From Candidatus Omnitrophota bacterium (GTDB taxonomy: Bacteria > Omnitrophota > Gorgyraeia > Ghiorseimicrobiales > Ghiorseimicrobiaceae): 64,000 bases of DNA. This document shows positions 24,217-63,032 of this stretch, piece by piece; position 1 is the first letter of the stretch, and every line of letters starts with the position of its first letter. Location: contig JAUXSB010000003.1 in NCBI GenBank assembly GCA_030681595.1, positions 31,207-95,206 on the forward strand, read 5' to 3'. The notes beneath the pieces are model-generated. The model saw only the letters and a program-made list of their open reading frames with translations, searched no databases and had not been told where the DNA came from. Made by a program: the position numbers and the translations under genes.

Positions 24217-24219
24217 AGC

Positions 24220-25904: not shown

Positions 25905-25908
25905 CTTT

Positions 25909-38770: not shown

Positions 38771-38794
38771 GCCACAACGCTTTTTGCGGATAAC

Positions 38795-40650: not shown

Positions 40651-40681
40651 ACATCTATCCTAACCTTAATTATCCGTTGTC

Positions 40682-41614: not shown

Positions 41615-41618
41615 GTTT

Positions 41619-44734: not shown

Positions 44735-45693
44735 TTAATTGCCCTGAATTCGCCCCAGCCAACCTTTTCGGCATAAAGATTATCTATACCGCTGCATTTA
44801 TAATAATATTTGCATGGTTTACAGCTTTTATTTTTTATATTCCTTGATTCACGAGGTAATATTTCTACTCTTTTATTTTTAACCTGAAGTGGGATTTCGG
44901 ATTCCCCGACGTAATTTTCATAACCTACCATCAAACAAAGCGGCACAGGAGATATCTGTATAACGCCGGATAATCTAAACAGCTTATCTACTTTTAACCT
45001 ATCAATTACATTCCTAACTTCTTTAGCTACATCCAAATAAGTAACAAATAACTGACTGAAGAATCTTTCTGCGTTGCCGGAATACATTGGCATATTTAAC
45101 ACAATGCTATCTACTTTATTAAACGGTAAGATTTTTCTTAAGAAATTTTCAATATCTCTGTAGTTAATTTTTGTCATGGTAAAATTAACATTAAGCCGAA
45201 ATCTATATTTTTCCTTTAAAGAGACCATGTTGCATAACCCTTGCCATGTTTGTTCAAATGCACCGCTGCTACGAGTTAAGGCATCATGGATTTTTTTATT
45301 ACTCCCGTGAAGAGAAATATTAATCTCATTTAGCCCGCTATCTAATAATTCAATGCAAAAGTTTTTATATCTTAATAAACGCCCGTTTGTCTGTAGGCAA
45401 ATATCTTTATATCCCCACTTCTTAGATAATCTTATGAAATAAAGTAAGCCCTTATTCAGCGTTGACTCTCCCCCCGTAAATGATATGGAATCGACTTCTT
45501 TTGTTTTTCTTCCATCTCTTTTAAACATATCCAGATTTAAAAATGGTTCTCCGTTGACACTGCAATAATATTTTGACAACATATTCTGGCCATTAATACA
45601 ATCGCGATCACAGCAAAAAATACAATTATTGTTACAACACCCGCTGGTTTTAATATGAATTCTACTATCAGGGCTTATAATTACGTTATCCAT
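44731..45693 (-). CDS. Small radical SAM protein, paralog S7
   Basis: It has CCNNNCIFCCD, FTGGEST, SLHGSNKKIHD and VPLCLM. The C-terminus is CKPCKYYYKCSGIDNLYAEKVGWGEFRAIK. Confidence 0.85.
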   Translation of the reverse strand: MDNVIISPDSRIHIKTSGCCNNNCIFCCDRDCINGQNMLSKYYCSVNGEPFLNLDMFKRDGRKTKEVDSISFTGGESTLNKGLLYFIRLSKKWGYKDICLQTNGRLLRYKNFCIELLDSGLNEINISLHGSNKKIHDALTRSSGAFEQTWQGLCNMVSLKEKYRFRLNVNFTMTKINYRDIENFLRKILPFNKVDSIVLNMPMYSGNAERFFSQLFVTYLDVAKEVRNVIDRLKVDKLFRLSGVIQISPVPLCLMVGYENYVGESEIPLQVKNKRVEILPRESRNIKNKSCKPCKYYYKCSGIDNLYAEKVGWGEFRAIK

Positions 45694-45696
45694 TCT

Positions 45697-47055
45697 CTAA
45701 CGGTAAAAAAATAATGCGTAGATATATTTTTCTTCCGGCTTATCAAAATAAAAACAAATGTAATCATCAAAAATCTTTATTTTTCCAAGCCGCTTTAAAG
45801 CGTAAATAGCATAAGGAAAGGCAACAAAAATACTTGTACCAAACACAGCCTCAAATATTTTTTGAGGAACCTTGGATTCTAAGGCTAAATGATTTATTAT
45901 AAATTTTATCATCGCCTCTTTTTTCCTTAATATTCTACCCTCATATATTTTACTATCAAACTCAAAATGCCTCGGTTGCTTAACTTGACGATACTCCAGC
46001 ATACCATGTATATACGACCTGGAAAATGTTCCCAGGCCAAAGGTACACCCTGCGTATTCACCGGAATAATCTTGGGAAAAACTAGAGTCAAGATGTTCCT
46101 TATGGCGAAAGCCCCAATGGAACCTGGCAGGGTCAAAAGAGTCCGCTACATAGCCGAATTTCCGGCTTAATACACGCATAATTTTTAATGCCCGTGAAAT
46201 CATGGATGGATAATGCTTTTGAAAATAATCTGCGCGGCTCATCTTGAAATATTTACGCAGATATCCGTCATTAGGCGGCATTAAACCATAGACAACGATA
46301 TTATAAGGCCTTAATTTAGCAATTTCAGAAAAACTTTTTGTAAAGCCATTTGGGCTATCCCCTGCGAGACCGGCTATTAAATCGACACTAATATCCCTAA
46401 AACCATTTTCTTTTACCAGCCCAATTGCTTTTTTAATGCTCGCGTAATCCTGATAGTCCCTTTTATGAATTTTTAAAACCTTAGCATTTAAAGTTTGCAC
46501 GCCAAAACTAACTCTATTAAATCCAAAATGCTTAAGTAAGCTCAATCTTGAATTTCTTGTACTGCCTGGATTACATTCGGCTGTTTTTTGGCTATCGCCA
46601 CAAAATGAAAAATACCGGAAAAGATTTGTGAGAACCTTATCAAGTTGTTTGCTGTTTAAAATACTTGGTGTACCGCCTCCGACATAAAGATTACGGAATT
46701 TAATTTGGCTGAATGTATCGGAAAAAAAACACATATTCTCAATCAAATAATCCACATACCGGTCTATCTCTCTCCTGTCTCTTGCTGTCTGCGAAGGATA
46801 CGAACAATAAACACATTTTGACTGACAAAATGGGATATGGATGTAGAAATCGATATCGCACGGGTTGTTTTTATTTTTAGCATACTGGATAAATTTAGCC
46901 CAATAATCTTTAATTAGGCGGGGGCTAATCTGCCGGTTATAATCGGAATATGTATGCAGTTGATTAATATCATAAAAATAATCCCTCCGCCTAAGAATAT
47001 TTTCAAAATACGACACCTCATTCCTTAATATTTTTAAAATGTTGTTATCGCTCAT
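45697..47055 (-). CDS. HemN-like (oxygen-independent coproporphyrinogen oxidase family) radical SAM enzyme, copy 2
   Basis: 452 aa. It has YIHIPFCQSKCVYCSY, LYVGGGTPS and NRVSFGVQT, the classic HemN/HemZ-family motifs. Confidence 0.8.
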   Translation of the reverse strand: MSDNNILKILRNEVSYFENILRRRDYFYDINQLHTYSDYNRQISPRLIKDYWAKFIQYAKNKNNPCDIDFYIHIPFCQSKCVYCSYPSQTARDRREIDRYVDYLIENMCFFSDTFSQIKFRNLYVGGGTPSILNSKQLDKVLTNLFRYFSFCGDSQKTAECNPGSTRNSRLSLLKHFGFNRVSFGVQTLNAKVLKIHKRDYQDYASIKKAIGLVKENGFRDISVDLIAGLAGDSPNGFTKSFSEIAKLRPYNIVVYGLMPPNDGYLRKYFKMSRADYFQKHYPSMISRALKIMRVLSRKFGYVADSFDPARFHWGFRHKEHLDSSFSQDYSGEYAGCTFGLGTFSRSYIHGMLEYRQVKQPRHFEFDSKIYEGRILRKKEAMIKFIINHLALESKVPQKIFEAVFGTSIFVAFPYAIYALKRLGKIKIFDDYICFYFDKPEEKYIYALFFYR

Positions 47056-47063
47056 ATGAATAA

Positions 47064-47990
47064 CTAAATAGGGCTTAATTCTTTATCGCCAAATTCTTTA
47101 TAATAACGCTTAAATATTCCCCCGCAGATATTCTTCTTTGCGCAACGCTGGCATACAACTGTATAGATCCTCCCCCTAACCGGCCTGTACGAATGCGTAA
47201 CCTTAAGAAATCTTTGGCTACTTCTATGCATCTTTTCGATTGTCGTCCGGGGAGACCACCAAAGATCATTAGAACAGCCCTGATAATTATTCAATATACA
47301 AAGCGGTATCCCAAAAAATCTAACAACCAAAGAATTCCTATCGGCTTCGGATATAATTGTTCTAATGTTTTCTTTAATTAACTTAAGGGGCACGGATAGC
47401 TCGCAAAAATTATCCAAAGCATTGCCTTCAGGAGCAATATTAGAAATGAGTATCTGCTTTATTTTTTTGAAATTAGAGATAAATTTGATTATGCGATCTA
47501 GCGATCCAAAATTATACCGCGTCAATACGATATTAACAATGCCGAATATGTCTTTCGGATGCCTATCTATATTTTTTAACGCACGAAGCAAATTATCAAA
47601 ACTATGTTCGTTATTTGTATGAAAATTATGGAGTTTAGCGCTGTGGCCATGCAAAGAGAAGCAGAACTCATCAACATAATTTAAGGCCTCCCGAGTGAAA
47701 TCTTTTAAATAAAATAATCCTCCGTTACTCGTAGTATAAGTTTTATAGCCTTTAGTTTTTGCTAATTTAACTATTTCCACAAAATCGGGATGAAAAGTCG
47801 GTTCTCCTCCGGTAAAAGTAACATGATTAATTCTTCCCTTGTGATATTTTTCCAAAACGTTATTTACAACCGATTTCGGCAAAAAATACCCTTTAAACTT
47901 TATTAGCTGCTTATGCTCACTGCAAAAAATACAGTTATTTACGCAATCATAGGATATATGCAATTCTAATCGTTGTATATTATTTTCCAT
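47064..47990 (-). CDS. Small radical SAM protein, paralog S6
   Basis: It has DCVNNCIFCSEH, FTGGEPTFHP, SLHGHSAKLHN and IPLCIL. The C-terminus is CQRCAKKNICGGIFKRYYKEFGDKELSPI. Confidence 0.85.
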   Translation of the reverse strand: MENNIQRLELHISYDCVNNCIFCSEHKQLIKFKGYFLPKSVVNNVLEKYHKGRINHVTFTGGEPTFHPDFVEIVKLAKTKGYKTYTTSNGGLFYLKDFTREALNYVDEFCFSLHGHSAKLHNFHTNNEHSFDNLLRALKNIDRHPKDIFGIVNIVLTRYNFGSLDRIIKFISNFKKIKQILISNIAPEGNALDNFCELSVPLKLIKENIRTIISEADRNSLVVRFFGIPLCILNNYQGCSNDLWWSPRTTIEKMHRSSQRFLKVTHSYRPVRGRIYTVVCQRCAKKNICGGIFKRYYKEFGDKELSPI

Positions 47991-47994
47991 ATCA

Positions 47995-48912
47995 TTATTT
48001 AATCGGCTTTATTTCGCGATCACCATAATATTTTAGGTATATATCCCAAACACCTTTACACTTATCAGCAATCTTACAAAATAAACATTTTCTAATTTTT
48101 ATTCGATTAATTATTTTTTTTGACTCGATATTTTCGTACTGTTCAATTTTATTTTTAGATATCAACCGAGGCGTACTTTCAAACGAATATTCATTTTCCT
48201 CGATAGTACCGGATATCTGCTTAAGATAGTCCCCAAAATAGCATAAGCAGGGAACATTTAAAGCCGCATAGCTAACCTCATCATCTAACCGCCCAATATC
48301 TAAAAATTTGCGAATATAATACGCGGCTGTAGAAATACGCGGCGTATATTTATAAAAATCACGCGGGGAACTAACATAAATGAGGCATGCCGTTTTTATC
48401 CCAACACGATAGATTAACTTACCTATATCATATAAATATTTATAATTCTGCTTAACAATTACCGTGTTTGTACCTATATTATCAAACCCGAATTTCCTAA
48501 GGTTGGCAATCCCTTCCTTAAGATGTTTAAAGCTCCCCTCTACCTGCGATAGATAATCGTGTAATTTTGCATTATGCCCGTTGATCGTAAAGATTATACG
48601 AGAAATTCCTGCCTCAATAGCCCTACGAGTAAAATCTTCATAAGAGAAAAACCTGCCATTTGTAGTCAAAGTGATATTTTGAAAACCTATATTTTTGGCA
48701 AATTTTAGCAAATAAAAAAAGTCCGGCCTAATCGTAACCTCCCCCCCGGCAAAAAAAGCATCAACAGCCCCAGCTTTTTTCGCTTCTTTAATCTCCCGCA
48801 TTATTTCCTGTGTCGTTTTAACAGGAATACCCCTATATGCCCTATCGCCGCAAAAACGGCAATAATTATTACAGGAATAACCGGTAAGAAATTTTGCTGT
48901 TTTATCTTGCAT
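47995..48912 (-). CDS. Small radical SAM protein, paralog S5
   Basis: It has SCNNYCRFCGD, FAGGEVT, TINGHNAKLHD and VPCLCY. The C-terminus is CLFCKIADKCKGVWDIYLKYYGDREIKPIK. Confidence 0.85.
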   Translation of the reverse strand: MQDKTAKFLTGYSCNNYCRFCGDRAYRGIPVKTTQEIMREIKEAKKAGAVDAFFAGGEVTIRPDFFYLLKFAKNIGFQNITLTTNGRFFSYEDFTRRAIEAGISRIIFTINGHNAKLHDYLSQVEGSFKHLKEGIANLRKFGFDNIGTNTVIVKQNYKYLYDIGKLIYRVGIKTACLIYVSSPRDFYKYTPRISTAAYYIRKFLDIGRLDDEVSYAALNVPCLCYFGDYLKQISGTIEENEYSFESTPRLISKNKIEQYENIESKKIINRIKIRKCLFCKIADKCKGVWDIYLKYYGDREIKPIK

Positions 48913-48922
48913 TGATAATAGT

Positions 48923-50455
48923 TTATTGCTTGGAGTTAGAGTTGAAGCACCGATTGTACTGCCCGCATTCTCGGCAAAATCCCCGCCATAAGTTTAAATT
49001 GAGATTATCCACCATAAGGCGACTTTGTGTTAACGCCGCAAGATATTTCGATTTCTTATAAATACAATAGATCTCGGAATGATACAACTTCAAAATTTCG
49101 CTGATATCGGCTTCGGAAAAAAATTCTGTGCAATATGGGATGACGGATAAATTAGATTTGGAGAAATTATAAAAATCCTTTAAGGAATTTACTTTACTTA
49201 ATACTCCGTATTTTTCTGGATAAAGGAATAGTGGAGAAGCAGGGTCAATCGCAGTTGAGTCCTGGCGTATTTCAACATTCGCTAATCTATTCCGTATGGA
49301 ATTAATGAATTTTAATGTTTCATATATATTTTTTTTTGTTTCAAAAGGCAAACCCGCGGAAAACGATAAGCATAATTTAAGATTTTTTTTATTGGCATAC
49401 AATAAAATCTCTAATATTTCATTATTTGAATAGCCCGCCTCTTTATTCATTTTCCTGATTTTTCGCGATCCGCTTTCTAAAAAAATTGAAATAATTGACC
49501 CCCTTTGAAATGTTTTCGCGAATTCGTCAATAAATACCTTTGTTGATAATCTGCAATCACCAAAATTTATAGTTAGGTCGATTTTATTTTTCCGTATTTC
49601 TTTAAACAAATCCATAAAATATGCATCATTCTGGCTCACCGCATACATATGCAGTTTATTGATATTATATTTTTTCAGTCTTTTTAAATCCTTAATCACA
49701 TATTTCACATCGGCAAAAACAATTTTACTTCTCTTGTTAATATTTTTTTGGGCCGAACACCCTCCCCCACAAAAAGAACAGCTCCTGACGCATCCCCGGC
49801 TAGCAGTATAATAAAATATTGGTTCGCTATCCTTATTGTTTAAATCCATAGAGAAGAATCTTATATATTTATCGTGGTTACGAATAAGTTTAAAGTTCGC
49901 ATATGATAATCTGTTAATTATGGCTTTGCCGGCAACATAAGTATGGGGGTTTTCAACTATGCCTTCACCGTCTCTCCATACCAAGTTCGGGATAAGGCGC
50001 AACCCCTCCGGAGATTTACTTCGGATACTATTTAAAAGCGCTAATAAAGGGATTTCCGCATCACCCTTGATGACAAAATCTATTTCTTTATATGTACGCA
50101 TAATTTCAGTGGCGAAAAGTGAAGCCGTCATCCCGCCTACTATCACCGTAATCTTTTTAATCCCGCGTTTTAAATATTTAATCGCCTCCAATACTTCGTA
50201 TGTATGCTGATACCAATGAAGATCAAATAATACTGCCCAATAACCTCTACTTATAACAAAATTTTTCAAGTCAAAACTGGGATTTAAGCTTTTTTCCAGG
50301 CCCAGATGAATAATAGACGGTTTAAAGCTATTTTTTGATAAATAGTCTGCGATGCCTATCATGCCGCGAGGCATCAATTTTATGCTAGGATTTTTCCCCT
50401 CTCTGGATACATGGACAAAACAAACTTTATTATTAAGCTTAAGGTTAGCAGCCAT
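48923..50455 (-). CDS. B12-binding-domain radical SAM enzyme (class B)
   Basis: 510 aa. The N-terminal Rossmann-like cobalamin-binding region reads VIVGGMTASLFATEIM...DFVIKGDAEIPLLALL. This is followed by ASRGCVRSCSFCGG and a C-terminal CRECGQYNRC. Confidence 0.75.
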   Translation of the reverse strand: MAANLKLNNKVCFVHVSREGKNPSIKLMPRGMIGIADYLSKNSFKPSIIHLGLEKSLNPSFDLKNFVISRGYWAVLFDLHWYQHTYEVLEAIKYLKRGIKKITVIVGGMTASLFATEIMRTYKEIDFVIKGDAEIPLLALLNSIRSKSPEGLRLIPNLVWRDGEGIVENPHTYVAGKAIINRLSYANFKLIRNHDKYIRFFSMDLNNKDSEPIFYYTASRGCVRSCSFCGGGCSAQKNINKRSKIVFADVKYVIKDLKRLKKYNINKLHMYAVSQNDAYFMDLFKEIRKNKIDLTINFGDCRLSTKVFIDEFAKTFQRGSIISIFLESGSRKIRKMNKEAGYSNNEILEILLYANKKNLKLCLSFSAGLPFETKKNIYETLKFINSIRNRLANVEIRQDSTAIDPASPLFLYPEKYGVLSKVNSLKDFYNFSKSNLSVIPYCTEFFSEADISEILKLYHSEIYCIYKKSKYLAALTQSRLMVDNLNLNLWRGFCRECGQYNRCFNSNSKQ

Positions 50456-50536
50456 TTAAAAGCGTGAAAATGTGTTTTCTTTCGAATAAATACGCAAATT
50501 ACTGTGAATCATTTTTTTAAATTTACGGTTATCCCC

Positions 50537-50775
50537 CTAGGTGTTTAAAAGTATATCCCGTATAGACGAAGAGGTTTTTCCGATATCATCCAAACTTTTT
50601 ATATCATTCACTGTGCCAAAATAAAATTCTCTTTTTAGCTTTTTAAATTTAGTCTCAAGCAATGGCCCCCCACAAAATATATCCCCCCGTCGCAATCAAC
50701 AGCCGGTTCAGAAGATATGATCCGCTCACCTTCCCGAATTTTGAAATTCGCTATAAAATTAATAATCTATTGATA
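50537..50775 (-). pseudogene. Possible decayed or frameshifted small ORF in the only large intergenic gap of the cluster
   Basis: Two overlapping minus-strand frames read ...EGERIISSEPAVDCDGGIYFVGG and GGPLLETKFKKLKREFYFGTVNDIKSLDDIGKTSSSIRDILLNT*. Adding one G in the G6 tract (50666-50671 on plus) would fuse them. No canonical start codon is present. Confidence 0.25.
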
Positions 50776-50800
50776 CTGGGTAAAACTTGCGTATCCATAA

Positions 50801-51742
50801 TCATTTTATCGGCTTTAATTCTGAATCGCCGTATAGCTTATAATAAGGCCGAAAAATTCCTTTGCAAAAATTATTTTTTTTACATACCCTGCATAATCTG
50901 GTTTTAGCGGCCATTGGGGTAGAGCGATTAATTTTTCGCAGGCGCAAAGAACCTTTCTTGTACTCCATTCTATCGTATTGCTCGTTAGCCTCTGCACTAC
51001 AATCATCTATATTGCCTGAAAAATCAGGCAGTACACAAGAAGGAACCCCAAAAATCCTGATATTCATCTTCAGGATTTGAGCTAAATTAAAAATGAGATG
51101 CGCTTTTTTTTCCCATTTACTTAACCTTACCGTATATTCCATGATAAATTTTTTATTTGCCGTTACGGGGACCATATTTGAAAATAACACCCTCTTTACT
51201 CCCAAATTATGCAACCCTATAATTATATCTTTTAAATATGGAAAATTATATTTTGTGACTACGGAGTTAGTTAATAAGTTAATTCGCGGATTTATGTCCA
51301 GGATATTCCGTAAGGCGCCGATTACTTTTTTGAAACTTCCGGGATTATTGGTATGACTATCATGAAGCCCAGCATTATGGCCATGCATAGAAATAACTAT
51401 CTCATCAATAAATGGGACTACCTTAGCCGCGAAAGAATACGAACTAAGCATAACGCCATTAGTGTTAAGATGCACCTCAAAACCATGGCTTTTTGCGGCA
51501 TAAAGAACATCGAAAAAATACGGATACAGCGTCGGTTCTCCCCCGGTAATAAATAGTGAACTATATTTCCCGGAATTTTTTTTAAAGAATGCGGTAATCC
51601 TATTCAAAGCAAAAGGTTGTAGGCTAAGATTCTCCTGTGCTCTGTTATCGGCTTCCAAACAAAAATCGCAATTGTTGGTACAGGCATAAGAAAGCATTAT
51701 TTCTAAGCGCTTTATTTGCTTACTCTTCTTCAATGTATGCAT
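50801..51742 (-). CDS. Small radical SAM protein, paralog S4
   Basis: It has ACTNNCDFCLE, ITGGEPTLYP, SMHGHNAGLHD and VPSCVL. The C-terminus is CRVCKKNNFCKGIFRPYYKLYGDSELKPIK. Confidence 0.85.
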   Translation of the reverse strand: MHTLKKSKQIKRLEIMLSYACTNNCDFCLEADNRAQENLSLQPFALNRITAFFKKNSGKYSSLFITGGEPTLYPYFFDVLYAAKSHGFEVHLNTNGVMLSSYSFAAKVVPFIDEIVISMHGHNAGLHDSHTNNPGSFKKVIGALRNILDINPRINLLTNSVVTKYNFPYLKDIIIGLHNLGVKRVLFSNMVPVTANKKFIMEYTVRLSKWEKKAHLIFNLAQILKMNIRIFGVPSCVLPDFSGNIDDCSAEANEQYDRMEYKKGSLRLRKINRSTPMAAKTRLCRVCKKNNFCKGIFRPYYKLYGDSELKPIK

Positions 51743-53114
51743 CTAAGTCTTGATGTTCTATATCATTAATTCTACTTTTAGCAACAGAATACTTACTTTT
51801 AAAAATATTCATAACTTTTTTGCTGTAAAAAATTTTGGATAAGATAAAATACTGTTTTTTATCCTTAAAATTTGGCCGAAAAATTAAACTGCTGTCTAAA
51901 CAATTTAAATTTCGCTTTAAAAAACTAATTTCTTTTTTAAAGGCCGGATTAAAATCAACGCCAAACAGCTTAAAAAACTTTCTTTTGTTTATCCCTTGAT
52001 AAAGAAACTTAATAATATAATATCTGCTTTCTTCATCCCTGTTCATTTTATAGCCATTATATAACTGGGCTGATTTAAAATAATTATTAATACCGGTTGA
52101 TAAACGGTAACATCTGTTTGCAAACGCATAAGATATCGCGCCGTATCCTAAGCCCAAAATAGATACCTTAAAATCTGGGGACTCAAATAAATTAATCTGC
52201 GGGTTTATTGCTTCCTTTGATAAAGCCGACCCTGCGCGGCCGATGCTTTTATAGCCAGAAAATTTCTCTAAAATATTTCTCTTGATATCAACCATCATCT
52301 TCCTTCTTCTTATGTCGCGTTGCGTAAATTTAAAATTTTTCCTTGAAAATAAGGTATTTTTATCTGGCAAAAAAGGATTAACATGAATAATATCGGGGTG
52401 CAATTTAACAACCATCAATAATGATTTAACGAATGACTGTATTGTCTGCCCCGGTAAGCCAGCCATTAAATCAATATTCAAATACGGAATGCCTATTTCT
52501 CTTGCCTGAGTAAACGCTCGGTAAACTGAATCTCGGGTTTGTTTTCTCGCCATCTTTACCAATACTTTTTTATCCAGTGTTTCTACGCCGATAGTCAGGC
52601 GCTTTAATCCTAGATCCTTAAGTAATCTTAACTTACCGCTATCAAGAGAATTCGGATGCGCATCAATGGCGAATAAAAAATAATCCTCAAAGCAGAACTT
52701 TCCTTTTATGTATTGAATCAAATCTGCAATCTGCTGGTTTCTCAATACAGTCGGCGTGCCTCCTCCTATATATAAAGAACTAAATTTAATGCCCCTGAAT
52801 AGGCTATGAAAAGAATCGATTTCTTTCTTTAAAGCTCCCAGGTAAGTATCAAGCTGAGAGAAACTCGATAGCGGGAAAGAAACACAATTACAATAAACGC
52901 ATTTTGTCTGGCAAAAAGGAATATGTATATAAAGGCATATTTTATTAAGACGGGGGTCTCGCTTTAAATTACGGGCAACGTTTTTCCATGATTTAATAAT
53001 CTCATCCTTGCTAACATTAGACCAAATCAAAGGCGGAGGATATAATACGGGATAACCATCTTCCAAAGAATGCAATGTGATATTTGTAAAAAGCGCATTA
53101 TCCATAATATCCAT
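51720..53114 (-). CDS. HemN-like radical SAM enzyme, copy 1
   Basis: 464 aa. It has LYIHIPFCQTKCVYCNC, LYIGGGTPT and KRLTIGVET. It is a paralog of 45697-47055. Confidence 0.8.
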   Translation of the reverse strand: MDIMDNALFTNITLHSLEDGYPVLYPPPLIWSNVSKDEIIKSWKNVARNLKRDPRLNKICLYIHIPFCQTKCVYCNCVSFPLSSFSQLDTYLGALKKEIDSFHSLFRGIKFSSLYIGGGTPTVLRNQQIADLIQYIKGKFCFEDYFLFAIDAHPNSLDSGKLRLLKDLGLKRLTIGVETLDKKVLVKMARKQTRDSVYRAFTQAREIGIPYLNIDLMAGLPGQTIQSFVKSLLMVVKLHPDIIHVNPFLPDKNTLFSRKNFKFTQRDIRRRKMMVDIKRNILEKFSGYKSIGRAGSALSKEAINPQINLFESPDFKVSILGLGYGAISYAFANRCYRLSTGINNYFKSAQLYNGYKMNRDEESRYYIIKFLYQGINKRKFFKLFGVDFNPAFKKEISFLKRNLNCLDSSLIFRPNFKDKKQYFILSKIFYSKKVMNIFKSKYSVAKSRINDIEHQDLDAYIEEE

Positions 53115-54082
53115 TAATTAATAGACGTGAAATCGTCAACGCCAAAATTATCGATATAATCTTTATATGGCCCGATACAGCTGTTCCTTCTCTTGCAATC
53201 CAGGCATTTATCAATCGGGGGATTTTGAATAATTACCTCCTTAGCATATAAATTGGGGTAAGAATCTAAATTTAAAACTTTTTTATCAAACGCAATACAA
53301 AATGGAAGTTCGGAAGAAGCGTCGTTTAGTTTACCGAATCTCTCCAAAACACAAACCGGAAAACCACGGAGAAATTCTTTTGACTTTTTTAGCTTGAAGA
53401 ATAAATTACGATACGGAACCATTAAATCCTTATAGTTAATGTCCTTGGGAAATGGATGAAATTTAACATGGATGAACCCATCAAAAAAAAATCTTGGGAA
53501 GGCATAATTACAAAACCCGAGAATATCATCTAAAAAACAATAATTTTGCTTTAATACAATGGAATGAAGATTGATATTCAACTCCCTAATCTTATTTAAT
53601 GCGCGTAAAACGCTGACAAGCGCTTCAAATGAACCTTTTTTCCGGACAACTCTGTCATGCACTCTAGCATCGGCGCCATAAATCGGTATATAGAAATTAA
53701 ATTTTAAAGGCAGACGCAAGATATTATCTAATGTATCTTTTTGTCCTAATTTTAACCCGGAAGTATGCAGATTGACTTCTTCATAGCCAAGCTTATGGCT
53801 AAAATTTAAAATTTGCGCTATAAATGGATGTGCCAGAGGCTCATCACCGCTTAAAAATATCTTTTTTAACTTTAGCCGCCTTCCAATGGCTAAAAGCCCT
53901 TTTATCCTAAACAATTCGCTATTAAGGCTATTATTTTTAATTTTACCCGGCTTACCGGGATAATTGGAAGTGCAAAAAATACAGTCATAGTCGCATTTAC
54001 TTGAAATTGGCAGAAGCGCATATTCAATTTTATTTAAAAGGGGCAAATTCTTTGTCACCATAGATTTTAAGGTATTCTTCAA
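53114..54082 (-). CDS. Small radical SAM protein, paralog S3
   Basis: It has KCDYDCIFCTS, LSGDEPLAHP, IYGADARVHD and FPVCVL. The C-terminus is CLDCKRRNSCIGPYKDYIDNFGVDDFTSIN. It overlaps the upstream gene by 32-53 nt, depending on which start is used. Confidence 0.8.
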   Translation of the reverse strand: MKNTLKSMVTKNLPLLNKIEYALLPISSKCDYDCIFCTSNYPGKPGKIKNNSLNSELFRIKGLLAIGRRLKLKKIFLSGDEPLAHPFIAQILNFSHKLGYEEVNLHTSGLKLGQKDTLDNILRLPLKFNFYIPIYGADARVHDRVVRKKGSFEALVSVLRALNKIRELNINLHSIVLKQNYCFLDDILGFCNYAFPRFFFDGFIHVKFHPFPKDINYKDLMVPYRNLFFKLKKSKEFLRGFPVCVLERFGKLNDASSELPFCIAFDKKVLNLDSYPNLYAKEVIIQNPPIDKCLDCKRRNSCIGPYKDYIDNFGVDDFTSIN

Positions 54083-54977
54083 AGATTCCTCCGCATACAG
54101 AAAATAGCCGGCATTTTATACATTTAGCGATTTTTATTCTCGACATATCAATTATATTGCTGGAAAAATTTGATATTGATTTTCGCGTGCTTATTTCCCT
54201 ATTCCAAAGGCACATTTCTGAGTCATTCTTAAACCTTTTACCTATCCTCATCTCTGGCTCATAAACTTCAAAAGCATACATAAAATTATCCTTGCCTAAA
54301 ATACATAACGGCACGCCCCCGAATCTTAACGGTATCCCGGATTCTTTTGAATATTCTGCCAATTTAAGGATATATTGCTTAAGCTTACTAAAATTTACTA
54401 CTAAATTTTTATAATCGTTTTTCGCATTTCCGCTAGGGACCAAATTTAAGTACCTTACGCAGCGGGGGCTATATTTAGACACGACTTTAAATATATCCAG
54501 CAATGACGCGGCATTATGTTTTGTTATGGTTACATTTACAAGAAATGCTTTTTTATAATATTTCCTAACATTTTTAAAAGCTTTTATCAATATCTTAAAA
54601 CTATTCTTATTGCCGGTATGTAAATTATGCACATATTCATCCGGGCCTTGTATTGAAAGGCACAAATCGTCGATATATTCAAAAGCCCTATTGCAAAAAA
54701 CTTTATCGGTAAACATAACACCATTCGATATAACATAAATTTGATAATTTAGATTTTTTGCGGCATGTAAAATTTCAAGAAACTTAGAATGCAAAGTTGG
54801 TTCTCCTCCCATAAAATGGACTAAACGCGCTCCCCGCTTTTTCTCTTTTTTCAGAACTTTTATTATAAATCCAAACGGGAGTTCACTATTATCAAACCTT
54901 GAATTCTCGCTGCAAAAAATACAGTTATTTGAACATTTATTCGCGATAAATAATTCTATCCTGTTTATTTTAAACAT
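54030..54977 (-). CDS. Small radical SAM protein, paralog S2
   Basis: It has KCSNNCIFCSEN, FMGGEPTLHS, SIQGPDEYVHN and VPLCIL. The C-terminus is CIKCRLFSVCGGIFEEYLKIYGDKEFAPFK. Confidence 0.85.
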   Translation of the reverse strand: MFKINRIELFIANKCSNNCIFCSENSRFDNSELPFGFIIKVLKKEKKRGARLVHFMGGEPTLHSKFLEILHAAKNLNYQIYVISNGVMFTDKVFCNRAFEYIDDLCLSIQGPDEYVHNLHTGNKNSFKILIKAFKNVRKYYKKAFLVNVTITKHNAASLLDIFKVVSKYSPRCVRYLNLVPSGNAKNDYKNLVVNFSKLKQYILKLAEYSKESGIPLRFGGVPLCILGKDNFMYAFEVYEPEMRIGKRFKNDSEMCLWNREISTRKSISNFSSNIIDMSRIKIAKCIKCRLFSVCGGIFEEYLKIYGDKEFAPFK

Positions 54978-55977
54978 ATGATTTATGTTTTATGGAAAAA
55001 TGCAGGTCTGCCTTATAATTCATGCCCTGATTTCGTTTCCTGTCCGTACTGATAATGCATGGATACATAACAAAATCATTTTTATCGCAAATTTTAATAA
55101 GATCTTCAATCGCGTTAAGATGAGATCTTAAATTCCAGCATTTCAAAAAATTAAAAATCTCTTTGTACGAGCTACTGAAATCGGAAATATTGTTTTCGTA
55201 AATTTTTAATATTTTTAACGGAATAAGGTGGCCGCCCTTATCAAAACGGTATGCGATTTGGTAAAAAGCGGACTTTTCTTTTGTGAATTTTTCAAAGAAA
55301 TTTTCAAAATAAGCATACTGCCGCCAAGTAAGCAGGTCTCTATACCTGCCTAAACTCAAATGCTTTGAATAATTGTATATTTTAATGCTGTATGTTGAAT
55401 CGCAAAAAAAATCTATCCCAATAACACTTATTAAATAATCTTTTAAGGCAGTAATAATATCTTCGCCATTAAAATTTATAATTTTACTAATAGTTGAAAT
55501 TTTGTTAAGCCTGCTCTTTTGAGAATCAGAAATGAGTAATTCTTCTAAGTATATTTTTAATCTTGGGTATGAGCCTATAGGCCAATCCATGCCGAATGTG
55601 GTCTGATGTTTATCCCTAACTTTTATCGCATTGAAAATCTCTTTAAGCTTGAGTGTGTTGTAGCGTGTTTTATAATTATAATTCAATACGTTAAAAGCAT
55701 TAATTATTTTTTTATCAAATGATTGTTTTTCATTATAATTGTTGTAGGTAAACCTAAAATTTGAAATATGGTCATACCCTTTGATTAAAGAAAAGGAAAA
55801 GTCAAATTTAAAATGCGCCGGGACATCTCTATGGTTGGAATGTTTTATTATCGAATCTTTTACTGCGCTTACAACTTTTTTATTAATGCTACCGCCTATC
55901 TCGCCTAACAGATAGCCTATAATATTCGAGATGGATAAAAAAAATAAACGATTTCTATTTATTGCGCTATCGCCCAT
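54970..55977 (-). CDS. Hypothetical protein (unknown family) embedded between radical SAM genes
   Basis: 335-aa ORF that overlaps both neighbours (8 and 11 nt). It has no Cys motif and no feature I recognise. Confidence 0.5.
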   Translation of the reverse strand: MGDSAINRNRLFFLSISNIIGYLLGEIGGSINKKVVSAVKDSIIKHSNHRDVPAHFKFDFSFSLIKGYDHISNFRFTYNNYNEKQSFDKKIINAFNVLNYNYKTRYNTLKLKEIFNAIKVRDKHQTTFGMDWPIGSYPRLKIYLEELLISDSQKSRLNKISTISKIINFNGEDIITALKDYLISVIGIDFFCDSTYSIKIYNYSKHLSLGRYRDLLTWRQYAYFENFFEKFTKEKSAFYQIAYRFDKGGHLIPLKILKIYENNISDFSSSYKEIFNFLKCWNLRSHLNAIEDLIKICDKNDFVMYPCIISTDRKRNQGMNYKADLHFSIKHKSYV

Positions 55978-56872
55978 ATTTTTTTAGGACAGGGACAAAT
56001 TCTGACCAGCCAAATTTTTCAGGATACTCTTTCCACGGCCCTTCACAAATTTTATAATGATAGCAATGCCTGCAAGACAAATTCTTCGCTTTTCCTTCTT
56101 TTTTACGTACTTTCGTAAAATCATCGATAACCTTTCCAAGGTCATAAATTATTGTTTCGGGTATAATCTTTTCAGCGATATAATCTTCATAGCCTTGCAT
56201 GAAACAATAAGGTATTGCTTCTGTCATGACTTTTTTATTAGCCTTGATACCTATACCCAAACCTTCCTTAACATAGGGCATAACCATTGAAATTCTCGGC
56301 ACAACAGAATAAAAATTATCGCCTGCCGAACCGGCAGCATGGACAAATGCAAATTGAAATTGGTCAACGCCAAGTTTTACCAAAAGCTCAGCGATTTGCG
56401 CTAGATGCCTATAATTAGGTTTAGTAATAACCGTGTTAGTGATTACAGTTTGATTTCGTTGTTTTAAATTTATTATTCCCGCGACAGTCTCGTTAAAGCT
56501 GCCGGCAGAAGAAGTCAAATAATCATGGACTTGGGCGATATGCCCATGGAGTGCCGGAGAAAATTCATTCGCCCCTGCGGCAATAATTTCATCGCAAAAC
56601 TTTTTATAATAGAATATCCTGCCGTTAGTTTGTATTTGGATAATTTTAAATTTCAATCTTTTGGCATGGCCAACCAAATCTAAAATATCGCTTCGTATTG
56701 TAGGCTCGCCTCCGGTAAAAACAACCCCATCGCAGTCTCGCCTGGCATCCTCTAAAATCTTCTTTATAGCAAGAGTATCTTTATCGCTTTGCAGGTGTCT
56801 CTTCTTGCCCTGGACGCAAAACCGGCAATGGTTATTGCAAGCAAATCCGATTTTAATATCAACTCTTTTCAT
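55967..56872 (-). CDS. Small radical SAM protein, paralog S1
   Basis: It has ACNNHCRFCVQG, FTGGEPT, ALHGHIAQVHD and IPYCFM. The C-terminus is CRHCYHYKICEGPWKEYPEKFGWSEFVPV. Confidence 0.85.
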   Translation of the reverse strand: MKRVDIKIGFACNNHCRFCVQGKKRHLQSDKDTLAIKKILEDARRDCDGVVFTGGEPTIRSDILDLVGHAKRLKFKIIQIQTNGRIFYYKKFCDEIIAAGANEFSPALHGHIAQVHDYLTSSAGSFNETVAGIINLKQRNQTVITNTVITKPNYRHLAQIAELLVKLGVDQFQFAFVHAAGSAGDNFYSVVPRISMVMPYVKEGLGIGIKANKKVMTEAIPYCFMQGYEDYIAEKIIPETIIYDLGKVIDDFTKVRKKEGKAKNLSCRHCYHYKICEGPWKEYPEKFGWSEFVPVLKKYGR

Positions 56873-57842
56873 TTTTAAGGTAGCGCACGAAAGATGTTAA
56901 AACTTTATCTACTGCCATTGTAGAATCAAAAATCGGCTTAGAGACGCCCTCTTTAATTATTTGCCTAATATTTGCCAAACCGGGAAAATGAGTTTTTATA
57001 AAAGGAAGGCTTCTAACGGACCCGATCTTAAGTTGTTTTCTAAAAGGGGCGAAATATTTAGCCAAAAATAAATTATTTGTGAAAATGTCGCCATTACAGT
57101 CAACGACTAAACCGGCGTTAAATAAAGGAACGGTATTCGTAAAGTCTAAATTCCTAATATAGATATCCATTTTATTTCTGTTCCCTAGTATAAATCTTGC
57201 GATTTTATAAAAATTATTTTTCAACAATTTTATTTTATTTTTATCCCAATAAATAAAATAAGCCGGCAAAAAGTTAAAACGATTAAAACCCAGCTTCAGG
57301 ACATAGATAAAATTATTATAAAATACCTCTGCGGTATTGGGCGCAATAACCATATTTATAGTTACGCGGCCCGGATAAGAAGAAAAGAGTTTGTGTCTAT
57401 TTAAAATTATTGTATCAAACGATTCTTTTTTATTCTTTGTAATCCTATTGCGTAATTGGGTATCTCGATCGCCATCTAAACTTATAATTAATTCTATATC
57501 CCTGTTTGTCTTTAAAAAATCTATGATTTTATTGTTTAATAACGACCCGTTGGTCGTCAGTTGAAATTGAATTTTTTTATGCAAAATTTCCGCTTTTTTT
57601 CTTGCGAATATTATAATATCCCTTAGCAAAGCAAAATTCATTAATGGCTCGCCGCCGGAAAATTTGATTAAACAATTATCGGGCGCGATTTTCAAAAAAA
57701 AATCTACGGATATTATGGCGATATCATAATTTATCTTTGAAAAATCACGTATGGTTGGACAATACCGGCACTGGAAATTACAGCGATGGTTTATTATAAT
57801 TATTAGTTGCGGGGGGAGCGAATTAATATTACCATTGGCCAT
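56859..57842 (-). CDS. Radical SAM enzyme, HxsC-like (no full SPASM Cys set)
   Basis: It has HRCNFQCRYCPT, FSGGEPLMNF and VDCNGDIF. I placed the start at the ATG at 57842 (MANGNINS). This overlaps the precursor stop by 14 nt. The track's longer N-terminus (MAPMAPMAP...) is the HGS-repeat DNA read in another frame. Confidence 0.65.
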   Translation of the reverse strand: MANGNINSLPPQLIIIINHRCNFQCRYCPTIRDFSKINYDIAIISVDFFLKIAPDNCLIKFSGGEPLMNFALLRDIIIFARKKAEILHKKIQFQLTTNGSLLNNKIIDFLKTNRDIELIISLDGDRDTQLRNRITKNKKESFDTIILNRHKLFSSYPGRVTINMVIAPNTAEVFYNNFIYVLKLGFNRFNFLPAYFIYWDKNKIKLLKNNFYKIARFILGNRNKMDIYIRNLDFTNTVPLFNAGLVVDCNGDIFTNNLFLAKYFAPFRKQLKIGSVRSLPFIKTHFPGLANIRQIIKEGVSKPIFDSTMAVDKVLTSFVRYLKNEKS

Positions 57843-58154: not shown

Positions 58155-58895
58155 CTACTCTACCGGCTGTCTATCGGCTTCTTTAGAAAAACTATCTTTT
58201 GAAGCTGGATAATACTGTTCAAAGAAATTTCTAAAACTTTTGCATTTCTTGCAAACACTCTCATCCCGTGATACGCTGCCTTTACATAACATGCTAAGGT
58301 ATTCATCGCTTATCTCATTACACTTATTAACATCATTAGTTTCCAACGCCTGTATATAATAAACCCTACCGGTGCACTTCTTATCCCCTTTACTGCAATA
58401 CTTAGGGTCTCTAAGCCTAAGCGCCATACAGTCATTTTTCTGGTCCTTACTTATTGAATTATCACACGCAGCAACATCTTGAGCAAAAAAACTGTCCGCT
58501 ACTTTACGGCAATCTACGGCAGTTGGTTTACCTTCCTGTTTCTGGCAGGCCTCCATAAACTTCTGGGTAACAGAACCCATCACAACCAGTTCGCTAAAAA
58601 ATCTGTGGAAACCATAGAAATTACGCCTACATAAATTAGCTTCATCTTTCGATAAATTATTGCATACACTTACGTTATCTCTAGCGGCTGCTAAACACGT
58701 CAGATATGTATCTAAAAAACCCTGCCTTTTCGAATAACCTTCAAATATAACTTTACTTAAATTGTCTATATTAAAATCATTGATTGCTTGTTCCTTGGCA
58801 TTATCTTCGGCCAAAGCATTACAATTATTAAACCCAACTAAAAAGCATCCACCCAACAAAGCTATTACTAAAAACCTGAATATGAAAGTTTTCAT
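58155..58895 (-). CDS. Secreted or lipoprotein-like Cys-rich protein (about 15 Cys)
   Basis: I placed the start at the ATG at 58895 (MKTFIFRFLVIALLGGCF), which forms an ATGA overlap with the upstream stop. It has a signal peptide with a lipobox-like LLGGC. Cys residues are spread throughout, including CKKC. Confidence 0.55.
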   Translation of the reverse strand: MKTFIFRFLVIALLGGCFLVGFNNCNALAEDNAKEQAINDFNIDNLSKVIFEGYSKRQGFLDTYLTCLAAARDNVSVCNNLSKDEANLCRRNFYGFHRFFSELVVMGSVTQKFMEACQKQEGKPTAVDCRKVADSFFAQDVAACDNSISKDQKNDCMALRLRDPKYCSKGDKKCTGRVYYIQALETNDVNKCNEISDEYLSMLCKGSVSRDESVCKKCKSFRNFFEQYYPASKDSFSKEADRQPVE

Positions 58896-60361
58896 AGCGC
58901 CGCCTTTCCTTTCGTGCAATCTTTTACCCAGCGTTCAAATATATTCTTATATTGACTATTCTGTAATTTTTCAAAGAGATAGTCCAAAATCGCGCCGTTA
59001 ATCTTACATCTTCCATTAAAAGGCTGAAATATATTTTTGCTTTCCGTATAATTTAATAAAGGGCACACACCGCAATATGGTTTATAGACACATTGGCTGC
59101 ACTCAGGGATATTATCTAAACAGGAGCTTATACACATCGCCTTAACAGTTGGATGCTCAATTATATTTTTATATGTGTCGGTTTTTACGTTTCCGACCTT
59201 AAATGATTCATCTCCTAGCCTGCTAAGCATCCTGCCTTCGTCGCATGTGTAGATATCACCGTTATAATTATAAGCTACTTGGCCGATACCGGCGCCGCAA
59301 GGAGAGCGCATATCCATATAGCCGGGGTCATAATCAGTAAGTATTTTATATAGGAATATGAACGCCGTCCTCTCGTAAAAATTGCTTCCTTTTAAATTTA
59401 ACTCTAAGATATAATCCAGGGATTCTTTATAAAACTCAATAAATTCTCCCCACGAATACGCGAGGCTATCCGCCTTGGGCGCCAATGCAAATGTGGACAA
59501 GGGACGTAAATGGATACAATCTAATCCACCCTTTATATACTCATCAATAATCTCTTTGGAATGGCCGAAACAACGATTGGTCACCGTCAATAATGCATTT
59601 GGGCGGTGCTTAAAACCCGTTTTTTCAAATTCTATTTTTATCTTCCTAAGCCACTTTACGGTATTGCGGTAGCTATTGATATTCTTATTAAGGCTTACGC
59701 GATTTCTATTATGTATATGTTCCGGGCCATCAAGCGATGTACAAATACTTACGTCATTTTTTATTAAAAATTTTAATATCTCATCTGTTAAACAACTCAA
59801 ATTAGAAACAAGAGAAAGCGTTAATTTTTTTTCTTTATTCTTATTTTTTTTCTTGGCATATTCAATTATAAATTTTACTGTATTAAAATTAAGTAACGGC
59901 TCTCCTCCTTGAAATTCGATAGTAATTTCGGGGGCCGGAAATTCAAAAATTTTATCAACAACAGACTTGGCTGTCGGGATATCCATATCTAAACCGGCCG
60001 TCTTAATGCCTCCGGAGTTAGCTTGACAATAGGCGCATTTGTGGTCGCATCTTAATGTTACCACTATTATATGCAAGCTAGTCCCTCGAGATAAAAAATC
60101 GTGCTTGTTTGCATATTTGGCAATTAACTTATCAAAATCTAATTTATTACGCACAAAACTTTTGTTTATAAGCTCATCGTATTTAACCTCATCCTGCTTC
60201 ATAATCTCGTTAATCTCTCCCTTTATGAAGCTATTAAACCAGCCCGGTTTTAAAAAACAGTATTCTCCTACATCATTAGTGACAAGATAGCTGCCGTTAA
60301 ACCTCTTGAAACGAAAGTATGAAACCGCTTTCTTGTCAATCAAATTTACATCTATAGCCAT
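58892..60361 (-). CDS. Radical SAM/SPASM-domain peptide maturase, HxsB-like
   Basis: 489 aa. An N-terminal ~95-aa extension precedes RCDHKCAYCQA and FQGGEPLLNF. The C-terminal SPASM-type motifs are CGAGIGQ...YTCDEG...CSQCVYKPYCGVCP. Confidence 0.7.
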   Translation of the reverse strand: MAIDVNLIDKKAVSYFRFKRFNGSYLVTNDVGEYCFLKPGWFNSFIKGEINEIMKQDEVKYDELINKSFVRNKLDFDKLIAKYANKHDFLSRGTSLHIIVVTLRCDHKCAYCQANSGGIKTAGLDMDIPTAKSVVDKIFEFPAPEITIEFQGGEPLLNFNTVKFIIEYAKKKNKNKEKKLTLSLVSNLSCLTDEILKFLIKNDVSICTSLDGPEHIHNRNRVSLNKNINSYRNTVKWLRKIKIEFEKTGFKHRPNALLTVTNRCFGHSKEIIDEYIKGGLDCIHLRPLSTFALAPKADSLAYSWGEFIEFYKESLDYILELNLKGSNFYERTAFIFLYKILTDYDPGYMDMRSPCGAGIGQVAYNYNGDIYTCDEGRMLSRLGDESFKVGNVKTDTYKNIIEHPTVKAMCISSCLDNIPECSQCVYKPYCGVCPLLNYTESKNIFQPFNGRCKINGAILDYLFEKLQNSQYKNIFERWVKDCTKGKAAL

Positions 60362-61601: not shown

Positions 61602-61674
61602 AAAAGATAATTAGTGATACTTTATGATATAATTTTAATTTACAACTTAAATATACCTCAATTACCCACGGCTG

Positions 61675-62997
61675 TCAACTTATTTTTGCCTTGCTTTTAA
61701 GCTTTCCAATCATTACGCCTGAAGCACATTCCACTAAGAGCGCTTTTATTAACCTGTTTTTTAAATCAGCGCGGCTTTTAATCAAAACTTTAATATAGTT
61801 ATCTGTATGGCCCTGCCAAAAATACGGCTCTTCTTTAGAACGGTTTTCAATAAGCACAAAAGGTTCCTTACCTAGAAACCTCTTTCGATAAACCAAAGAA
61901 CAATCGTTGGCGACACCTTTAAGATATGCCGCTCTGCGTTTAACTGTTTGCGGCGCGATATTACTTTTAAATTTTTTTGCCGCGGCCGTAGGCTCTCTTC
62001 TGGAATAACAAAAGATATGTGTCCTTAGGGGGTTAATCTCCCTGATTAAATTAACGGTGTTTTGAAAATTTTCTTCGCTCTCACAAGGAAAACCTACTAA
62101 GACATCAGTAGTAATAGCAATACCTTCAATCAACCCTTTTATCTCATTAATCAGCCGTAAGTACGTGGCGCTATCATAATTACGATTCATCATTTTTAAA
62201 ATACTGTCGTCGCCTGACTGCAGCGGAATATGCAAATGCCGGCATAATTTTTTCGAACTGCGTAATTTTCTAATTAAGGCGGCATTAACATCCATTGGCT
62301 CAATAGAGCTTAAGCGGATGCGTAAAAGGCCGCCGATATTTTCCAGGCTTTCTATTACTTCAACTAAATTTGCCTCCTGAAGGCCATCCTTACCGTAGGA
62401 ACCTAAGCATATGCCGCATAAGACGATCTCTTTAACCCCGGTTTTTACCAAACGCTCTGCCTCAAGCGTAACCTCTGAAAGCGTACGGCTGCGGGACCGC
62501 CCACGCACATAAGGGACTTTACAGAAACTGCAAAAGTTGTTGCAGCCATCTTGTATTTTTAAAAAAGCGCGGGTATTACCTTTAAAAACGCCTATACCAT
62601 CAGGAAAAAAGCTTTTAGAGATGATGAAATCTACATCGGGCACACCGGAAAGAGACGGGGCATCTTTTTGCGCTAAACACCCTGTTACAATAATTTTAGC
62701 ATCGGGATTTTCTCTTTTTATGCGCCGGATAAGCTCACGGCTCTTTGCATCGGCAACAGCAGTAACTGTACAGGTATTAATCAGGCAGAAACGCGAAGGA
62801 CAACCGTTATCAAGCTCTTCAAAACCGGCGCGCATAAAGCGTGCCCTGATGCTCTGTGTATCGTATTGATTGACTTTACAACCAAGAGTATAAAATTTAA
62901 TGGTTCGACTACGTGCTTCGACAGGCTCAGCATCCTGAGCGGAGTCGAAGGACTCACCATTAATCCTGAGCGAAGTCGAATGGTTAATTGTTTTCAT
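61675..62997 (-). CDS. mtaB: MiaB-family methylthiotransferase, MtaB-like
   Basis: It has FYTLGCKVNQYD (UPF0004 domain), the radical SAM motif DGCNNFCSFCKVP, and a TRAM-like C-terminus. An unusual ~32-aa N-terminal extension is encoded by repeat-like DNA. Confidence 0.8.
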   Translation of the reverse strand: MKTINHSTSLRINGESFDSAQDAEPVEARSRTIKFYTLGCKVNQYDTQSIRARFMRAGFEELDNGCPSRFCLINTCTVTAVADAKSRELIRRIKRENPDAKIIVTGCLAQKDAPSLSGVPDVDFIISKSFFPDGIGVFKGNTRAFLKIQDGCNNFCSFCKVPYVRGRSRSRTLSEVTLEAERLVKTGVKEIVLCGICLGSYGKDGLQEANLVEVIESLENIGGLLRIRLSSIEPMDVNAALIRKLRSSKKLCRHLHIPLQSGDDSILKMMNRNYDSATYLRLINEIKGLIEGIAITTDVLVGFPCESEENFQNTVNLIREINPLRTHIFCYSRREPTAAAKKFKSNIAPQTVKRRAAYLKGVANDCSLVYRKRFLGKEPFVLIENRSKEEPYFWQGHTDNYIKVLIKSRADLKNRLIKALLVECASGVMIGKLKSKAKIS

Positions 62998-63032
62998 CCC
63001 TTAGAAATTATATCCCGCAGAAATATCAATTT

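Follow-up and report, generated by a model that had tools for sequence, protein, structure and literature searches.

The canonical His-Xaa-Ser (Hxs) radical S-adenosylmethionine (SAM) system, with its hxsD-hxsB-hxsC-hxsA gene set, was reportedly described by Haft and Basu in 2011. HXS has recently been shown to be a four-protein anti-phage system, with the four genes found in 99.8% of canonical systems (PMC13128918). In Escherichia coli, HxsB, HxsC, and HxsD mature HxsA in the cytoplasm, and the processed effector acts in the periplasm, where it is anchored by a peptidoglycan-binding domain (PMC13128918). Here we describe an additional component of a different Hxs type, encoded on the minus strand of a 64,000-nucleotide stretch of a Candidatus Omnitrophota genome (contig JAUXSB010000003.1; referred to below as the window). 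The gene in question lies between those for the maturase HxsB and the His-rich precursor HxsA4, and its Cys-rich product is very probably a conserved, exported, disulfide-stapled component of the system.

The cluster in the window belongs to the Hxs class, as its HxsB, HxsD, and HxsA-type precursor all pass curated cut-offs (Table 1). It shares with canonical HXS these two maturation factors and a His-Xaa-Ser repeat precursor, whose N-terminus bears an export signal and whose expected site of action is extracytoplasmic. The canonical D-B-C-A composition was not found: the order is a second secreted protein of 196 amino acids (Sec196), HxsD, an HxsD-like protein, HxsB, the Cys-rich protein, HxsA4, and radical SAM genes. 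Canonical HXS occurs in plasmid or mobile contexts and its HxsA (Aeromonas control) combines basic HRSHxS repeats with a peptidoglycan-binding domain, whereas clusters of the window type occupy a fixed chromosomal position, encode two HxsD paralogues, two conserved secreted proteins, and up to 17 radical SAM enzymes, and have in HxsA4 a mini-precursor (98 residues in the window) with neither of these features. Because HxsA4 and the HxsD-like protein pass the NF038313 and NF038315 cut-offs, this subtype is one that the curators of NCBIfam already recognize, yet none of the type-4 models (NF038313, NF038332, and NF038315) covers the Cys-rich protein or Sec196.

The Cys-rich reading frame holds 15 Cys (residues 17, 25, 67, 78, 89, 117, 129, 144, 156, 167, 174, 192, 204, 215, and 218), and its product is named 'hypothetical protein' in GenBank. 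Its ATG (58895-58893) overlaps the TGA stop of the HxsB gene (58894-58892) in an ATGA at 58892-58895, with a Shine-Dalgarno-like GGAAAGG run upstream, and its stop is followed after 29 nucleotides by the start of HxsA4, ahead of which lies a ribosome-binding-like run of eight G. A first-pass annotation of the window had described a 246-residue frame with about 15 Cys between HxsB- and HxsA-like genes, joined to the former by an ATGA overlap and part of the same operon. All of this was upheld, by the translation, by the TIGR03978 and NF038313 scores of the two neighbors, and by junctions that are tight or overlapping both in the window and at every related locus. A promoter and terminator scan gave no internal signal around the gene and, with overall counts at shuffle level, is evidence for neither side. 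That the gene encodes a real, selected protein follows from a ratio of nonsynonymous to synonymous substitution rates of 0.20 against an 89%-identical homolog, from 119 related sequence clusters, and from a confident structural model (mean predicted local distance difference test score, pLDDT, of 94).

A member of the Cys-rich family adjoins HxsA4 in 15 of the 15 distinct loci that were read. Nine were reached from the Cys-rich side (L002; L003/L004; L005; L006; L007-L009; L010; L011; L012; L013/L014) and five from the HxsB side through HxsB homologs of 51-56% identity (L017, L018, and L019, Omnitrophota-type; L015, Schekmanbacteria; L016, Azambacteria of the candidate phyla radiation, CPR), with the window itself completing the set. 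Taxon labels were taken from the source records, including that of L003/L004, a metagenome-assembled genome labelled Planctomycetia. A genome search for related loci with HxsB alone as query found nothing. All 13 Omnitrophota-type loci have the order HxsD, HxsD-like, HxsB, Cys-rich, HxsA4 as far as the contig reaches, and this order is kept despite identities between Cys-rich proteins of only 23-40% and a differing set of downstream radical SAM genes. Junctions between the Cys-rich and HxsA4 genes consist of spacers of 2-29 nucleotides or overlaps of 17-32 nucleotides. In the Schekmanbacteria and Azambacteria loci the order is HxsB, HxsA4, and then a Cys-rich homolog of 291 or 316 residues with 14 Cys (family hidden Markov model [HMM] E-values 8e-10 and 1e-13), which has an N-terminal transmembrane anchor in place of the cleavable signal. 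Since the homolog still lies beside HxsA4 there, the adjacency survives a swap of gene order and spans three phyla. In the canonical hxsD-B-C-A loci used as controls (Aeromonas, Leptospira plasmids), the family HMM gave no match even at E<=10. The statement in the first-pass annotation that canonical loci contain only HxsA-D agrees with these controls and with the published survey (PMC13128918), and co-occurrence of homologs with Hxs genes, which it had raised as a question, was found at every locus read. These results strongly indicate that the Cys-rich protein belongs specifically to HxsA4-type clusters, as one of their conserved components.

The extent of the family depended on the search used. 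A word-index search returned one homolog (89% identity), which made the protein look like an orphan, and a profile search through the same kind of index yielded 6 proteins only. This picture was overturned by an exhaustive phmmer search of 1.84 billion representatives, in which the 119 related clusters were found; for 76 of these the E-value was <=1e-10. Members are nearly all between 210 and 260 residues long. The Cys-rich protein had no match in Pfam, NCBIfam, PADLOC, or PHROGs, and tblastn of plasmid and phage collections likewise gave none. The Cys-rich proteins are a new protein family that annotation pipelines call 'hypothetical'. Although Hxs systems and the HxsA4 subtype are already known, the family, its constant pairing with HxsA4, and its fold are undescribed in the libraries and papers searched.

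Judging from its sequence, the protein is probably exported through the Sec pathway by means of a cleavable signal peptide. In the window protein the n-region MKTFIFR is followed by the h-region FLVIALLGGCFLVGF and the c-region NNCNALA, with predicted cleavage before ED. A hydrophobic N-terminal segment is present in 98 of the 98 full-length family members, usually followed by a site of the type FA before Q or E, and this variable signal peptide is all that precedes the Cys-rich domain in the family alignment, with no conserved leader. As Cys17 and Cys25 fall inside the predicted signal peptide, the mature protein has 13 Cys. The N-terminus had earlier been called signal or lipobox-like; the signal part of that description stands, while a lipoprotein reading was rejected at the family level, where the lipobox [LVI][ASTVI][GAS]C fits only one of the 98 full-length members. 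The LGGC of the window protein is itself followed by further hydrophobic residues and by the ALA-E site.

Covariation in the presence and absence of Cys, computed on a 109-sequence alignment, showed that most Cys columns are gained and lost as Cys-Cys pairs (phi values in Table 1), which argues for structural disulfides rather than sites of thioether formation. Loss of each of the three variable pairs (37-229, 117-129, and 167-174) is independent of the others, with all loss combinations represented, and the residues that replace the lost Cys are mostly hydrophobic or small. The pairs spaced by 10-11 residues sit on consecutive helices in the secondary structure of the model described below. 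The window protein probably contains six disulfides: 67-215, 78-89, 117-129, 144-156, 167-174, and 192-204. By its signal peptide and paired Cys covariation it falls among disulfide-bonded exported proteins, with the bonds themselves being predicted. Cys218 (58242-58244) is the unpaired, odd Cys of the mature protein and forms a CKKC motif with Cys215; it is found in only 28 sequences (26% of the family), 19 of which lack the 37-229 pair.

With the 109-sequence alignment as input, AlphaFold2 models residues 29-246 as fourteen helices and zero strands at a mean pLDDT of 94.2 and a predicted template modeling score of 0.88; from the single sequence only, the pLDDT was 47. Comparison of sub-alignments with hhalign relates residues 125-176 to residues 172-232 (probability 90.7%, E 1.5e-7), and the two modules share the pattern aromatic, x2, A, x3-4, D, x3, C, x10-11, C, x, A, x4, D, x3, C. 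A third candidate repeat (residues 58-112) was not significant against either module (E 0.013-0.043). Weak multi-stretch matches to three proteins (P0226, P0235, and P0236) were also seen, and the Cys-stapled module of about 50 residues may recur in unrelated, longer proteins that are not encoded in Hxs clusters. Foldseek searches with the model found no relative in the PDB (best E 1.4, TM-score <= 0.28) or in BFVD (best E 0.37), and the best E-value of a sequence-profile search of the PDB with the family was 0.02. The modelled fold is thus one with no detectable structural relative among PDB entries and viral models. Membership in the Sel1-like/TPR proteins was rejected, there being no profile match or clear structural superposition. 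Saposin-like bundles are also small helical domains with several disulfides, but the family-profile match to saposin B was not significant (E 0.17) and no structural match was obtained, so membership there was rejected as well. Among the structure-search matches there was no thioredoxin-like or other enzyme fold. Conserved positions other than Cys are mostly hydrophobic (F41, L61, Y64, A69, A158, A183, I195, and F224, plus D140), and the family alignment has no conserved set of catalytic-looking residues, which points to a binder rather than an enzyme.

The presumed partner was aligned from 11 sequences. HxsA4 proteins are 85-125 residues long and begin with a basic leader that is strongly conserved (LPxIKKxIKDFLLSEEGKISKKxIAKxG). 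Next come 11-12 hydrophobic residues, an AQA-like site (AQA before A in the window), and a His/Gly/Ser-rich core that ends in G[QG]W, sometimes with an extra Cys; a peptidoglycan-binding domain and Arg-rich HRSHxS repeats are absent throughout. The tail of the window protein, GSHGSHGSHSSHGSHGQW, is a His-Gly-Ser repeat core ending GQW. Because these cores lack the Arg of the HRSHxS repeats, the proposal that E. coli HxsA binds DNA electrostatically may not extend to them. Both GQW and GGWC endings were observed (window 57829-58125; L007 10735-11034; L010 3197-3454; L011 7116-7376; L018 8198-8458). Two candidate correspondences with the Cys-rich protein were tried and rejected, as neither the match of its unpaired Cys to the C-terminal Cys of GGWC variants nor charge complementarity between the mature protein and HxsA4 gave a pattern across loci.

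The other conserved secreted protein, Sec196, is encoded by the first gene of the cluster, directly upstream of HxsD. The first-pass annotation had pointed to a second secreted protein with a Cys-rich tail at this position, and the sequence confirms it, with eight of the nine Cys lying within the last 73 residues. Sec196-type genes were located in ten related loci (L003 7384-7884, L007 6959-7531, L010 2-433, L011 3323-4330, L013 7013-7918, L015 1162-2295, L016 6315-7271, L017 7940-9373, L018 4261-5352, and L019 4995-5387), and in at least eight, including those of Schekmanbacteria and Azambacteria, they stand directly upstream of HxsD. The family has the motif 'ITITTYYPSPYGSY' after the signal peptide (degenerate in L015 and L016), a middle of variable length, which in L017 and L018 contains fibre-like GIGT repeats, and, at the C-terminus, 'PGC...CP.G[YF]...LCC'. 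It has no model in the libraries scanned and is 'hypothetical' in GenBank.

The cluster runs on the minus strand from 61601 to about 36033. Its 17 radical SAM genes (HxsB and 16 others, 38795-60361) are consecutive and co-directional and form an unusually dense array, in which the only other genes are the Cys-rich gene, HxsA4, and that of a 335-residue unknown (54970-55977); only one obvious peptide substrate was seen. Among these enzymes, the product of 42644-44734 has two radical SAM domains and that of 48923-50455 a B12-binding domain. The radical SAM gene that follows HxsA4 overlaps it by 14 nucleotides if the likely start is used, and its homolog in L003 (53% identical) has an equivalent start. 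The next product, which is HxsC4-like and the best HxsC candidate but scores below both the HxsC4 and the HxsC cut-off, is the best conserved of the downstream radical SAM proteins, at 53-70% identity across loci. The tandem HxsD paralogues (60352-60967) have overlapping junctions, and the pair is kept in most type-4 loci examined. A Peptidase_A24-like protein of the prepilin-peptidase family ends the cluster in the window (36033-36956), L010 (12535-13213), and L013 (19644-20600); the Pfam match is weak (24 bits), and from sequence this protein might process the HxsA4 leader (...SEEGK...). A scan of HxsB against PADLOC 2023, a library that holds no HXS model, gave viperin-like radical SAM matches only.

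Housekeeping genes flank the cluster: Memo/AMMECR1, RsmE, and MtaB lie upstream (61675-63770), and on the downstream side are LptD, a ROK kinase, and genes of a chemotaxis operon. The best promoter match of the region sits between MtaB and the first cluster gene. The chemotaxis set (15373-26669) is complete, with CheA-like, CheW, CheB, and CheR-TPR proteins, two methyl-accepting chemotaxis proteins, and a hybrid histidine kinase; next to it lies a cation-efflux gene. Memo/AMMECR1, RsmE, and MtaB also lie directly upstream of the cluster in L017 and L018, as they do in the window (locus L001), and L011 has RsmE and MtaB there, with the contig ending just beyond. The same upstream genes at L011, L017, and L018 argue for vertical inheritance rather than for a mobile defence island, which makes it uncertain that the anti-phage mechanism of E. 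coli can be carried over to the type-4 system.

Table 1. Features of the HxsA4-type cluster in the window and Cys pairs of the Cys-rich family (residue numbers of the window protein)
Feature	Position	Strand	Evidence and remarks
Cys-rich protein, coding sequence	58155..58895	minus	ATG start, 246 residues plus stop; MDP1852670.1
Predicted Sec signal peptide, residues 1-28	58812..58895	minus	read from sequence; cleavage between ALA and ED inferred
Mature all-alpha domain, residues 29-246	58158..58811	minus	AlphaFold2 model and Cys pair covariation
Two tandem Cys-stapled helical modules of about 50 residues, residues 125-176 and 172-232	58200..58523	minus	hhalign
Cys pair 78-89			phi 1.0
Cys pair 144-156			phi 1.0
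Cys pair 167-174			phi 0.98
Cys pair 117-129			phi 0.94
Cys pair 37-229			phi 0.89; both Cys absent from window protein
Cys pair 67-215			phi 0.70; almost invariant
Cys pair 192-204			Cys in 99-100% of sequences
HxsA4 precursor, 98 residues	57829..58125	minus	NF038313 60.7 bits (cut-off 55); NCBI name HxsA4
HxsB radical SAM/SPASM maturase	58892..60361	minus	TIGR03978 490.4 bits (cut-off 370)
HxsD-like small protein, 69 residues	60352..60561	minus	NF038315 64.8 bits (cut-off 41)
HxsD, 141 residues	60542..60967	minus	TIGR03976 55.4 bits (cut-off 50)
Second secreted protein (Sec196), 196 residues	61011..61601	minus	signal peptide; ITITNYYPSPFGVY motif; C-terminus rich in Cys, last residues MMCCET
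Best sigma-70-like promoter match of region	61650..61678	minus	TTGACA-17-TATATT, 11 of 12; consensus match, total counts at shuffle level
Radical SAM gene directly after HxsA4	56859..57842	minus	likely ATG 57842; reading frame could reach 57959
HxsC4-like radical SAM protein	55967..56872	minus	NF038332 166 bits (cut-off 500); TIGR03977 104 bits (cut-off 268)
Rest of co-directional cluster	36033..55977	minus	Pfam: 14 radical SAM genes, 335- and 356-residue unknowns, TPR protein, Peptidase_A24-like membrane protein

We tentatively favor a reading in which the HxsA4 peptide, once exported, is bound, retained, or presented by the Cys-rich protein, which would serve as its anchor. The Cys-rich protein is very probably a conserved fifth component of the HxsA4-type system, is translationally coupled to HxsB, and very probably folds outside the cytoplasm into a compact all-alpha domain of repeated helix-hairpin modules, probably stapled by disulfides. 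HxsA4, made beside it, would be modified in the cytoplasm by HxsB, the HxsC-like enzymes, and HxsD, by analogy with E. coli HXS, and then exported and cut after its signal-like segment (AQA before A) to leave a His/Gly/Ser-rich periplasmic peptide of about 45 residues. The Cys-rich protein may hold this peptide at the cell envelope. As HxsA4 has no peptidoglycan-binding domain, the Cys-rich protein would replace the anchor in trans, whereas canonical HxsA carries its anchor in cis, and the membrane-tethered homologs of the Schekmanbacteria and CPR loci fit a need to keep a partner at the cell surface. The Helicobacter cysteine-rich proteins (Hcp) and the Sel1-like repeat proteins are secreted helical-hairpin repeat proteins with a disulfide between neighboring helices in each repeat and are typically ligand or peptide binders; the Cys-rich protein resembles them in its predicted secretion, helical-hairpin repeats, and Cys staples. 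Of the two roles raised in the first-pass annotation, that of a binding or carrier partner for HxsA4 fits the evidence best, while that of a second radical SAM substrate fares poorly in view of the paired Cys, the lack of a conserved leader, and the folded domain.

Several points weigh against the binding proposal. The interaction is inferred from context, and the isoelectric point of the mature protein varies from 4.7 to 8.7 across loci, its net charge being variable as well, with no feature complementary to HxsA4. The disulfide pairs are predicted from covariation, the odd Cys count of the window protein leaves Cys218 without a partner, and periplasmic disulfide formation in an anaerobe-type lineage is an assumption. 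Most sampled loci come from one phylum and represent 15 of at least 119 clusters, so the synteny partly reflects shared descent. Finally, Sec196, which is likewise conserved and secreted, could be the true partner.

A more specific version of the proposal, which we consider unlikely as it stands, is that the Cys-rich protein is an apoprotein or receptor that captures the His-rich HxsA4 peptide, heavily modified by radical SAM enzymes, as a prosthetic group or metal-binding cofactor and forms, with the 'TTYYPSP...LCC' protein (the Sec196 type), a novel envelope or surface structure that Omnitrophota would inherit vertically and that Schekmanbacteria and CPR would also have. It is rather improbable that the Cys-rich protein instead provides immunity or sequestration, binding the exported HxsA4 product to shield the envelope of the producer in the manner of LanI. 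Clusters for ribosomally synthesized and post-translationally modified peptides are known to use extracytoplasmic binding proteins for immunity, and this precedent speaks for such a role, as do the adjacency, the export, and the tethering to the membrane seen in some lineages; the chromosomal position among housekeeping genes shared by four loci (window, L011, L017, and L018) and the lack of plasmid or phage matches nevertheless suit a bacteriocin less well than a cell function that is inherited vertically, and the cluster showed no export ATP-binding cassette transporter or protease of the kind usual in bacteriocin loci. We give a similarly low probability to a role as partner of Sec196, for instance as its chaperone or as the cap or base in a surface fibre, with the adjacency to HxsA4 being accidental. 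Sec196-type proteins are conserved in the cluster to the same extent, including the Schekmanbacteria and Azambacteria loci, and have a conserved Cys motif of their own as well as the fibre-like repeats of some loci. Even where gene order is swapped, however, it is HxsA4 that the Cys-rich gene stands beside, and HxsD, HxsD-like, and HxsB always separate it from the Sec196-type gene.

It is quite improbable that the Cys-rich protein is a second substrate, on which some of the many radical SAM/SPASM enzymes encoded in the cluster act in the cytoplasm (for instance by forming Cys-derived thioethers) before it is exported. The precedent is QhpC, a Cys-containing exported protein that is cross-linked by a radical SAM enzyme, with Cys linked to Asp or Glu, and here too a Cys-bearing exported protein is encoded beside a SPASM enzyme. 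Similarity to thioether-forming maturases such as PapB, SCIFF, and QhpD, at 1e-26 to 1e-39, is seen in HxsB and the radical SAM protein next to it (HxsB matches the QhpD model at 1.6e-26), in all cases below family cut-offs. The cluster also has 17 radical SAM genes for only one obvious peptide substrate. The Cys of the window family pair with one another, however, whereas thioethers join Cys to other residues and would not yield pairwise covariation and replacement; no sequence or fold similarity was found; and the confidently predicted folded domain of 218 residues, with no conserved leader or short core and in two phyla a membrane-anchored ectodomain, also speaks against this reading. A redox or processing factor acting on exported products through C215-x-x-C218 is highly improbable, since the CK[KQ]C motif of the window protein and its closest relatives depends on a Cys218 that only 26% of the family has, Cys215 covaries with Cys67 and not with Cys218, and no enzyme fold was found.

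The locus represents a distinct, chromosomally fixed Hxs type of uncultivated phyla in which a mini-precursor is always accompanied by an exported, Cys-stapled helical protein. This makes the Cys-rich protein a candidate for the extracytoplasmic factor by which the matured His-rich peptide is held or used, and it cautions against extending the defence mechanism of E. coli to all Hxs systems. If the apoprotein or receptor reading were true, this Hxs type would serve a housekeeping role in the cell envelope, as a machine of its own, and would not be an anti-phage system.

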